This document shows, one piece after another, positions 2,732-4,882 of a stretch of DNA of 64,000 nucleotides (position 1 is its first letter; every line of letters starts with the position of its first letter). The notes under the pieces are model-generated. The model was given only the letters and a program-made list of their open reading frames with translations. It was not told where the DNA came from and did no database searches. This DNA is from Neodothiora populina (taxonomy: Eukaryota): NCBI RefSeq assembly GCF_041146345.1, contig NW_027191413.1:1550001-1614000 (forward strand), written 5' to 3'. The position numbers were made by a program, and so were the translations under genes.

Positions 2732-4156
2732 ATGAAAGTTGGTGAGTGAAATGCGGGGAAAAGCTCTCTCATCCATTACCCTCGCTCCTTCTCAATCGAG
2801 CGATATCTGTGTAAAAGTATGGGATATACGTGCGCTGACCACTGCTCTGTAATACAGTTGTCGCAGGAGCTTCCGGCGGCATCGGCCAGCCTCTATCTCT
2901 TCTTCTCAAGTCGTCGCCCTTGATCGACCAGCTCTCTCTATACGATGTTGTCAACACTCCCGGCGTTGCTGCCGACCTGTCCCACATCTCGACGCCAGCT
3001 GTGAGTATAACCTCGGGCCCTGCATTCCGATGTCCAAAGAGCAGTGCGCTGAACTCCGCCAACAGAAAATCGAGGGTTTCCTCCCCAAGGATGACGGTAT
3101 GAAGAAGGCCTTCACCGGTGCCGACATGATCGTCATCCCTGCCGGTATTCCTCGTAAGTCATACCAGACCCTGTAACGCTTCACCCGAGGGCGGGAAGAT
3201 ACGGGGTGTTGACTCGTCTTCACAGGCAAGCCCGGTATGACCCGTGACGACCTGTTCAAGATCAATGCCGGAATCGTTCGCGACTTGGTCAAGGGTGTTG
3301 CCGAGTTCTGCCCCAAGGCATTCGTCCTCGTCATCTCCAACCCCGTCAACAGCACCGTCCCCATCGCAGCCGAGGTTCTCAAGGCTGCCAACGTCTTCGA
3401 CCCCAAGAAGCTCTTTGGTGTGACCACCCTTGATGTTGTCCGTGCCGAGACCTTTGTTGCAGAGATCACTGGCGAGAAGAACCCGGCCAAGACCACCATT
3501 CCTGTCATCGGTGGCCACTCTGGCGAGACCATTGTTCCCCTCTGGAGTCAGGCCAAGCCCGCCGTCAACGTTCCCTCAGACAAGCTCGATGCACTAACGT
3601 ACCGTAAGTATTGTGCTTGATGCTTGCTCGTCGCTGTGTCTGACTTTGATCTCAGGTGTGCAATTCGGCGGTGATGAGGTCGTGAAGGCCAAGGACGGTG
3701 CCGGTTCCGCAACCCTCTCAATGGCATATGCCGGTTACCGCTTCGCAGAGAAGCTCATCAAGGCCGTGAAGGGCGAGAGCGGCATTACCGAGCCTACCTT
3801 TGTCTACCTCGCCGGTGTCGAGGGTGGTGATGCCATCGCAAAGGAGACCGGCTGCGAGTTCTTCTCCGTGCCAGTCGAGCTAGGCGTAAGTTTTCTCTAT
3901 CCATGCTAGCTGGTCAAGAAAGTAGTACTGACATGGTTCACAGCCCGAGGGTGCCAAGAAGGCCATCAACGTTGTTGGCGATGCAAACGACTACGAGAAG
4001 AAGCTTCTCACCAAGTGCTACGAGGGCCTTGGCGGCAACATCAGCAAGGGTGTCGAGTTCATCAAGAACCCTCCCCCAAAGTGAGATTACCCATTTGTGT
4101 CGACCATCTGGATCCCAAAGACATGGCTAACCTGAATGTGGGCAGATAGGCTCTGA
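2732..4156 (+). CDS. MDH: NAD-dependent malate dehydrogenase, cytosolic type with possible peroxisomal splice isoform
   Basis: [21 protein letters not shown]ossmann start after a 10-nt first exon; [42 protein letters not shown] and [14 protein letters not shown] motifs. No mitochondrial presequence at the main ATG. Ends NPPPK* (4084 unspliced, or 4149 via the proximal acceptor) or NPPPKL* (4156 via the distal acceptor). Confidence 0.96.
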
Positions 4157-4688
4157 TTCAACGATTTGATGCATATTCAGGCCCCCCGACATTGATACCA
4201 CGAAGATAAAAGGTCGATTGTGAGCCAAGGCGTGTGCTGGGGGAGGGGTCTTGGGGAAATGGTTTAATTGAGAAATCTCGAACATGGCAATATTTTGCGA
4301 CGATATTCTTCGAGCTAACCCCAGAATTCAAAGTACTGCTGCTTGACCACAGTGTAATCCTTCTTTTCTTTTCTTATGCTCGCCATGTTCTTTCTGCCAA
4401 GTTCATGCGACAATGGGGGCCCGGTTTGGCGGAGTCTTGTGTGAAACCCTAGACTTGGGGTAACCCGTTCGATGAGCCGAAGCAAAGTAGACCAGACACA
4501 TACAGACAGTTGGCACGACCTTCTCCGCCTCCTTGTTACTCGAAAAGCGTGAGCTCCAGTCTTGATCTTTCCCCGGTCCGACTCGCAGAATGCAAAAGGG
4601 TTGTCGCAGCAGATGTCCCCACCCGCAGTATCACTCGACTCGCCACGAAAAAGCAGGCCGGCCTTCAGACTGAGTGGCCAGTCACGCA

Positions 4689-4882
4689 GCCACGCCACGC
4701 CACGCCACGCCACGCCACTTCGTGTCGTATGTGCCCAGGCGCGATCAGGTCCCGAAAGTGATCAGTCGCACGCGCAGGTTCGGTCGAGCTGGGGCTACTC
4801 TTTGTCGTCTGATGGCTGGAAAAGTGAGGAGACGGCAGAACGAGTGTCTGTGTCTGTGTCTGGCTCTGGCTCTGGCTCTGTG
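4689..4882. repeat. Microsatellites (GCCAC)6 and compound (TGTGTC)n(TGGCTC)3
   Basis: Read directly at 4689-4718 and about 4844-4882, between the convergent MDH and TRS33 3' ends. Confidence 0.9.

Follow-up and report, generated by a model that had tools for sequence, protein, structure and literature searches.

Among fungal malate dehydrogenase (MDH) genes, those of Yarrowia and Aspergillus fumigatus are the closest described counterparts of the locus analysed here, since in both the 3' end of the message can be spliced in more than one way. The coding sequence (CDS) of the Yarrowia gene YlMDH2 was described as ending in a pair of 3' splice sites separated by 4 nt, and cDNA, RNA-seq and YFP localisation data were presented in which use of the distal site leads to a protein ending in AKI and to the peroxisome; both mRNAs and both localisations were shown, with a ratio that varied by carbon source, and the device was thought by its authors to be unique among the yeasts compared (Kabran et al., 2012; DNA Res 19:231, PMC3372373). 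For the MDH of A. fumigatus, three mRNAs were reported from RNA-seq, in which the terminal intron is retained, spliced to a proximal acceptor or spliced to a distal one, and this three-mRNA state was proposed to be ancestral to Saccharomycotina and Aspergillus (Hurtig et al., 2020; RNA 26:1464, PMC7491326). Cryptic PTS1 motifs arising by alternative splicing or by readthrough have also been reported for glycolytic enzymes (Freitag et al., 2012; Nature 485:522). In searches of full text from non-subscription journals, the MDH device appeared only in the two MDH papers and in reviews citing them, and no survey of it across Pezizomycotina was found.

We analysed a stretch of 64,000 nucleotides of Neodothiora populina DNA (the window), which contains an MDH gene composed of six exons (2732-2741, 2858-3000, 3066-3153, 3226-3603, 3656-3885 and 3944-4084). 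The five annotated introns of this exon model are 52-116 nt long and are all of the form GT[AG]AGT...CAG, and translation of the annotated exons gives a protein of 329 amino acid residues with the C-terminal end NPPPK. In the protein search, the last exon was 100% identical to the 329-residue 'hypothetical protein AAFC00_002871 [Neodothiora populina]' (P0001), which matches the Pfam families Ldh_1_N (3.9e-45) and Ldh_1_C (6.2e-37), and its orthologues are named malate dehydrogenase, in some cases cytoplasmic. Since the protein has no N-terminal presequence and begins directly at the Rossmann (NAD-binding) fold, the host gene encodes the non-mitochondrial NAD-malate dehydrogenase of this Dothideales fungus. 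The features of the gene and of its 3' end are collected in Table 1. Downstream of the gene, at about 4674-4730 of the window, translations of the open reading frames show HATPR three times consecutively, suggestive of a short intergenic tandem repeat with a 15-nt unit.

Table 1. Coordinates in the window of the MDH gene and of the elements at its 3' end
Feature	Positions	Strand	Basis
Malate dehydrogenase gene, as annotated	2732..4084	+	Exon model, translation, last-exon protein match, Pfam
End of the CDS in the intron-retained mRNA: Lys codon AAG (4079-4081), stop TGA (4082-4084)	4079..4084	+	Sequence, translation
5' splice site GTGAGA of the terminal intron	4081..4086	+	Sequence
Branch-site consensus GCTAAC, branch A at 4130	4126..4131	+	Sequence
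Proximal 3' splice site CAG, 65-nt intron	4143..4145	+	Joined-form translation
TAG with dual use: stop codon of the proximal mRNA and distal 3' splice site, 69-nt intron	4147..4149	+	Sequence, joined-form translation
Predicted hidden coding end after distal splicing: G completing AAG (Lys), CTC Leu (4151-4153), TGA stop	4150..4156	+	Joined-form translation

The annotated CDS ends with AAC CCT CCC CCA AAG TGA (4067-4084), and this end overlaps a donor, AA/GTGAGA (4079-4086, with the slash at the exon boundary), that shares its first bases with the last Lys codon and contains the TGA stop; removal of the intron puts the exon end after AA at 4080. Further downstream, GGGCAGATAGGCTCTGA at 4140-4156 holds a pair of 3' splice sites whose AGs end 4 nt apart, at 4145 and 4149; the branch A of GCTAAC lies 15 nt ahead of the first (proximal) and 19 nt ahead of the second (distal) of these ends. 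Three mRNAs would thus be expected from the MDH gene: unspliced, spliced to the proximal site and spliced to the distal site. By translation, the unspliced form ends in ...NPPPK-stop, and the proximal form, in which 4080 is joined to 4146, encodes the same protein, with AA+A again giving Lys before the TAG stop (4147-4149). Joining 4080 to 4150 instead gives AAG CTC TGA and a protein ending in ...NPPPKL-stop, a putative PTS1. Every one of these elements, donor, branch site, both AGs, Leu and stop, is intact in the window. The original prediction had described this arrangement, that is, the CDS end with a GTGAGA donor overlapping the last codon and the TGA (4067-4086), the branch site, the two acceptors and the C-termini of the retained, proximal and distal products, and the sequence and the translated joined forms agree with it at each of these points.

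Considered as a tripeptide alone, the NPPPKL end has the canonical K and L of the PTS1 consensus at positions -2 and -1 and a non-canonical variant, P, at position -3; the residues ahead of it are likewise rich in Pro. PKL fits the pattern [SATPCVNG]KL, which is included in a published list of PTS1 motifs (Stiebler et al., 2014; PMC4207609), and, in Histoplasma capsulatum, -PKL fused to mNeonGreen was reported to suffice for peroxisomal localisation (PMC13343957), in line with the earlier claim that -PKL is a PTS1 variant. The proximal/retained end, NPPPK, has no PTS1. The 'PKL' of PMC12273641 is a plasmid name, which is irrelevant to the tag.

We consider it likely that the tandem acceptors of the terminal intron yield both a cytosolic and a peroxisomal MDH from one gene. 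With the splice sites used as predicted in N. populina, the unspliced and proximal-CAG mRNAs would give the cytosolic enzyme ending in ...PPPK, whereas splicing at the distal TAG would add Lys-Leu-stop and so complete the C-terminal PKL, allowing Pex5 to carry a fraction of the enzyme, the PKL form, into peroxisomes. The peroxisomal enzyme would use a malate/oxaloacetate shuttle to reoxidise the NADH of beta-oxidation and could also have a part in the glyoxylate cycle, and the ratio of the two isoforms might also be regulated. The shuttle role is proposed because of yeast Mdh3, as treated in reviews; in PMC12316961, MDH is mentioned for yeast Mdh3 only. A separate peroxisomal MDH gene may be present elsewhere in the N. 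populina genome.

Translation past the TGA stop (4082-4084), the route taken by animal MDH1, could also be imagined to produce a peroxisomal form, and a readthrough-derived PTS1 is in fact known for human MDH1 (Stiebler et al., 2014). In N. populina, however, the frame past the TGA stays open for 16 codons, until a TGA at 4133-4135, and its last residues are ...TWLT, with no PTS1, and the stop is followed by GA, as opposed to the leaky CU context described for MDH1. Contradicted by the sequence of the extension, readthrough was rejected, and the probability that we leave to it is close to nil.

With both strands of the 64-kb window counted, the acceptor pattern NAG-R-TAG-R-Leu-stop is found only once, at 4143, and the composite of AAGTRAG, branch site, tandem acceptors, Leu and stop is present solely at 4079. 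In unrelated sequence, taken as the other sequence within the fetched loci, we counted 1 occurrence of the acceptor pattern in a total of 407,898 nt. The terminal arrangement is not due to chance, because the motif is unique in the window, is this rare in the background and recurs at the equivalent position in 35 of the 47 orthologue clusters that could be assessed (see below). These observations are difficult to reconcile with the view that no splicing occurs, the motifs being chance or fossil strings in a 3' UTR and the 329-residue protein the sole product. The deposited annotation, which has no terminal intron, agrees with such a view, but spliced products were seen in relatives, and splicing was reported from RNA-seq data in A. 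fumigatus and Yarrowia (Kabran et al., 2012; Hurtig et al., 2020), and we regard it as highly improbable.

For the survey of orthologues, an alignment of the last exon was used to scan metagenome contigs, which gave 80 loci, 78 of them with the stop in view. Together with the window, these form 59 clusters, which are related to one another, so that the counts given here are not counts of independent events. The intron could be assessed in 47 of the 59, after leaving out 11 intronless, mRNA-like clusters and L076, which ends 8 nt past the stop. The tandem device, with an AA/GT donor on the last Lys codon and NAG-R-TAG-R-Leu-stop downstream, is present in 35 of the 47 assessable clusters, the window included. 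The distance from the donor to NAG-R-TAG-R-Leu-stop in these 35 clusters is 47-173 nt, with a median of 62 nt, to which the 65/69-nt intron of the window is close. A branch site of the form CT[AG]A[CT] lies 3-19 nt upstream of the proximal acceptor in 27 of them, a range within which the 15 nt of the window also falls. The junction reads AAGT[AG]A in all 35 (donor hexamers GTGAGT 20, GTAAGT 7, GTAAGC 3, GTGAGA 2 and others 3), and CAG serves as the proximal acceptor in 24 clusters, TAG in the remaining 11; the distal TAG (35 of 35) and the purine that completes the Lys codon are constant because the search pattern requires them.

Intron bodies vary visibly in sequence and length across the orthologue loci. 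At the hidden coding end, all six Leu codons are used among the 35 clusters (TTG 11, CTG 7, CTC 6, CTA 5, TTA 4 and CTT 2), as are all three stop codons (TGA 16, TAA 12 and TAG 7), and the resulting tripeptides are AKL (18), PKL (6), SKL (5), QKL (5) and TKL (1). When clusters with tandem acceptors are considered, Leu follows the distal AG in 36 of 36, and a stop comes next in 35 of these. That every Leu codon and every stop codon is used at a fixed Leu-stop points to selection acting on the hidden Leu-stop as a translated frame. The arrangement is thus conserved, with synonymous change.

The same codon usage bears on the proposal that the intron serves control at the RNA level (mRNA stability, choice of 3' end, or retention coupled to intronic polyadenylation) and that Leu-stop is incidental. 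The unspliced and proximal products are the same protein, so that the proximal splice alters the RNA alone; moreover, one clade, that of L031, keeps a spliced terminal intron with no tag (see below), and retention in Lipomyces starkeyi is likely coupled to intronic polyadenylation, as Hurtig et al. (2020) suggest. RNA-level control leaves unexplained, however, why Leu, written with six different codons, follows the distal AG in every tandem-acceptor cluster, with a stop after it in all save one, and why A, S or P predominates immediately ahead of the Lys, and we find it very unlikely as the main role of the intron.

Three further clusters of the 47 (L001, L010 and L079) reach KL-stop via a single acceptor. 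In L010, TGG is found at the position of the proximal AG. A scan for a hidden PTS1 in the 24 non-tandem clusters, combining donors near the stop with YAG acceptors 40-320 nt downstream, identified none beyond these three. Judged by the nearest named protein, which makes the labels approximate, the tandem arrangement is present in contigs near Aureobasidium (L002, 99%; L006, 100%) and Elsinoe (L051, 95%), and also near Pleopsidium (L071, about 92-94%) and near Pleosporales-like and Mycosphaerellales-like proteins. The YAG-NN-AG followed by Leu and stop that the original prediction anticipated in orthologous 3' ends is thus found in the 35 tandem clusters, with the three single-acceptor KL-stop clusters in addition, and its interpretation of the locus is supported by this comparative evidence. 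Its more general statement, that cryptic PTS1 isoforms including those of MDH are known in fungi, holds for the published cases of A. fumigatus and Yarrowia.

Transcript-like evidence comes from other fungi. A single run is listed for the stretch, with 5% of the sampled words, and its contigs come from relatives, being 80-99% alike to the window. These contigs skip the MDH introns, one joint (3153->3226) being of the GT..AG type, and in one record the part from 3560 to 3944 is exactly 273 letters long, which equals the exonic length, with the alignment ending at 4080. The joints 4080^4146 and 4080^4150 were not present among the relatives' contigs of that single run. One contig that continues past 4075 reads ...AAA TAG ACT CTG A, as would be expected of the proximal form of a relative, and its distal form would be Lys-Leu-stop.

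A tblastn search of P0001 against 18 chosen metagenome loci identified 12 with an intronless CDS and 6 with introns. From the absence of introns, we infer that the short intronless metagenome contigs represent RNA. L009 and L039 carry AAR TAG R-Leu-stop, the proximal product, and L016, which has a single 1-nt frame slip, carries AAG TTA TAG, that is ...PPPKL-stop, the distal product. In L033, the terminal intron is retained in an otherwise intronless CDS; L022 ends in AAA TAA (...PPSK-stop) and has no distal TAG; and six of the 12 intronless contigs (L008, L014, L026, L036, L063 and L068) show no sign of the device.

The last-exon search returned 49 proteins, nearly all ending in ...[A/S/P/T/Q]K, and 106 of the 145 orthologues in the full-protein set end in [ASPTQ]K, a PTS1 minus its last residue. 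Only 1 of the 145 annotations, P0071 from Phyllosticta citricarpa (...PPTKL), ends in KL, and the deposited N. populina protein ends in ...PPPK, as foreseen in the claim that gene callers would miss the distal form. The annotation of P0079 (Delitschia confertaspora) ends in ...GPKYVPAPQHRL, a longer extension with a PTS1-like HRL. A peroxisomal MDH is needed for reoxidising the NADH of peroxisomal beta-oxidation, and its absence from the N. populina annotation and from 144 of the 145 orthologue annotations would be due to a single hidden Leu codon. Since gene calls miss this codon, peroxisome inventories and metabolic models would be wrong at the MDH step. A simple rule for annotation pipelines would be to look for AA/GT at the stop, followed by NAG-R-TAG-R-Leu-stop.

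The hidden KL-stop is absent from 9 of the 47 assessable clusters, and loss of the device is therefore tolerated in some lineages. L011 and the L031 clade have an intron at the same place with a single acceptor, whose use gives AAG TGA, that is K-stop only. In L031, L038, L050 and L052, we noticed the donor AA/GTAATG, the branch site CCTGAC and a single TAG acceptor followed by GTGA, about 55-60 nt past the stop. Splicing in this clade gives AAG TGA and the same ...SK-stop end, with no tag. The terminal intron of the L031 clade is removed, as shown by the intronless contig L032, which lacks exactly the 53-nt terminal intron of L050 and is identical to it in 36 of 36 bases past the junction, yet it persists in the gene without a targeting role. 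Other clusters (L013, L015, L017 and L018, the last comprising L018/L020) end in PPS-stop, with no hidden tag by the donor/acceptor scan, and 26 of the 145 orthologue proteins end one residue earlier, in PPA, PPS or PPQ. L029, with TGG in place of TAG, L035, in which the GT is lost, and the L040 clade look decayed, and the L040 clade looks like a recent loss of the tag. In L040, L042 and L044, at about 75 nt past the stop, the tandem acceptors and Leu are intact and the stop is lost (GAG), which gives ...KLERSVI-stop.

Such decay (L029, L035, the L040 clade), together with the tagless L031 clade and the non-canonical Pro at -3, would suit an inherited relic, in which the intron of N. populina is spliced but only cytosolic enzyme results, either because distal splicing amounts to infrequent noise or because PKL targets too weakly here. 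Against this, 6 of the 35 tandem clusters encode PKL with its Leu and stop intact, contig L016, which represents the distal product, ends in PKL as well, the tripeptide sufficed for import in Histoplasma, and none of the elements is damaged in the window. We therefore hold a relic to be unlikely and retain the production of a cytosolic and a peroxisomal enzyme from one gene as the best explanation.

The device had been known from two or three species; the survey adds many Dothideomycete-like and Lecanoromycete-like lineages, as well as a signature of selection. We tentatively suggest, as an idea on which we would not yet rely, that the one-codon hidden exon might be the default state of the cytosolic MDH of Pezizomycotina (38 of 47 clusters), with Leu and stop under purifying selection, and that the proximal acceptor might be conserved as a decoy that sets the peroxisomal fraction and perhaps regulates it by carbon source. 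If this were true, the tagless lineages (the L031, PPS-stop and L040 clades) would have needed another solution for the peroxisomal NADH shuttle.

Compared with known systems, cytosolic and peroxisomal MDH isoforms are also present in S. cerevisiae, where they are described as the products of two unspliced genes (MDH2/MDH3), in contrast to the single alternatively spliced gene proposed here. In human MDH1, a cytosolic MDH likewise gains a hidden PTS1, but by readthrough at UGA CU and not by splicing, in a different branch of the MDH family and with a longer extension (Stiebler et al., 2014). The cases of Freitag et al. (2012) share with the proposal for the N. populina gene that an abundant cytosolic enzyme acquires a minor peroxisomal form through an altered mRNA 3' terminus, which cannot be seen in the annotated CDS, although, as reported, they concern other enzymes (GAPDH, PGK) and other intron designs. 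A further known case is the MDH of L. starkeyi, in which splicing of the same terminal intron creates a PTS1 (Hurtig et al., 2020); there, a single acceptor is described and the switch is between retention and splicing, a situation similar to that of L001, L010 and L079 and different from that of the window.

YlMDH2 resembles the N. populina gene in that it is described as the single non-mitochondrial MDH gene of its species, whose CDS has a 3'-terminal intron with a distal site that creates a PTS1 (Kabran et al., 2012). It differs in its two ends, ...PAN and ...AKI, in the sequence of its sites (UAGCUAG) and in having, as reported, no retained form, whereas in N. populina the proximal product is the same as the unspliced one and the distal site adds only Leu, giving PKL. 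The likeness is greatest to the MDH of A. fumigatus, where, according to Hurtig et al. (2020), the retained form is the annotated one, the acceptors are also 4 nt apart, the proximal product equals that of retention (only the wobble base and the stop being changed) and the distal UAG adds one residue to give a putative PTS1. The proximal site is AAG in A. fumigatus and CAG in N. populina, and splicing in the former, a member of the Eurotiomycetes, is supported by RNA-seq, whereas in the latter, a member of the Dothideomycetes, the device is known from its sequence. The design, with tandem acceptors 4 nt apart and a proximal product equal to that of retention, is thus already published for A. 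fumigatus, as is a close version of it for Yarrowia, and the N. populina MDH is a well-supported further case of this mechanism that introduces no new principle.
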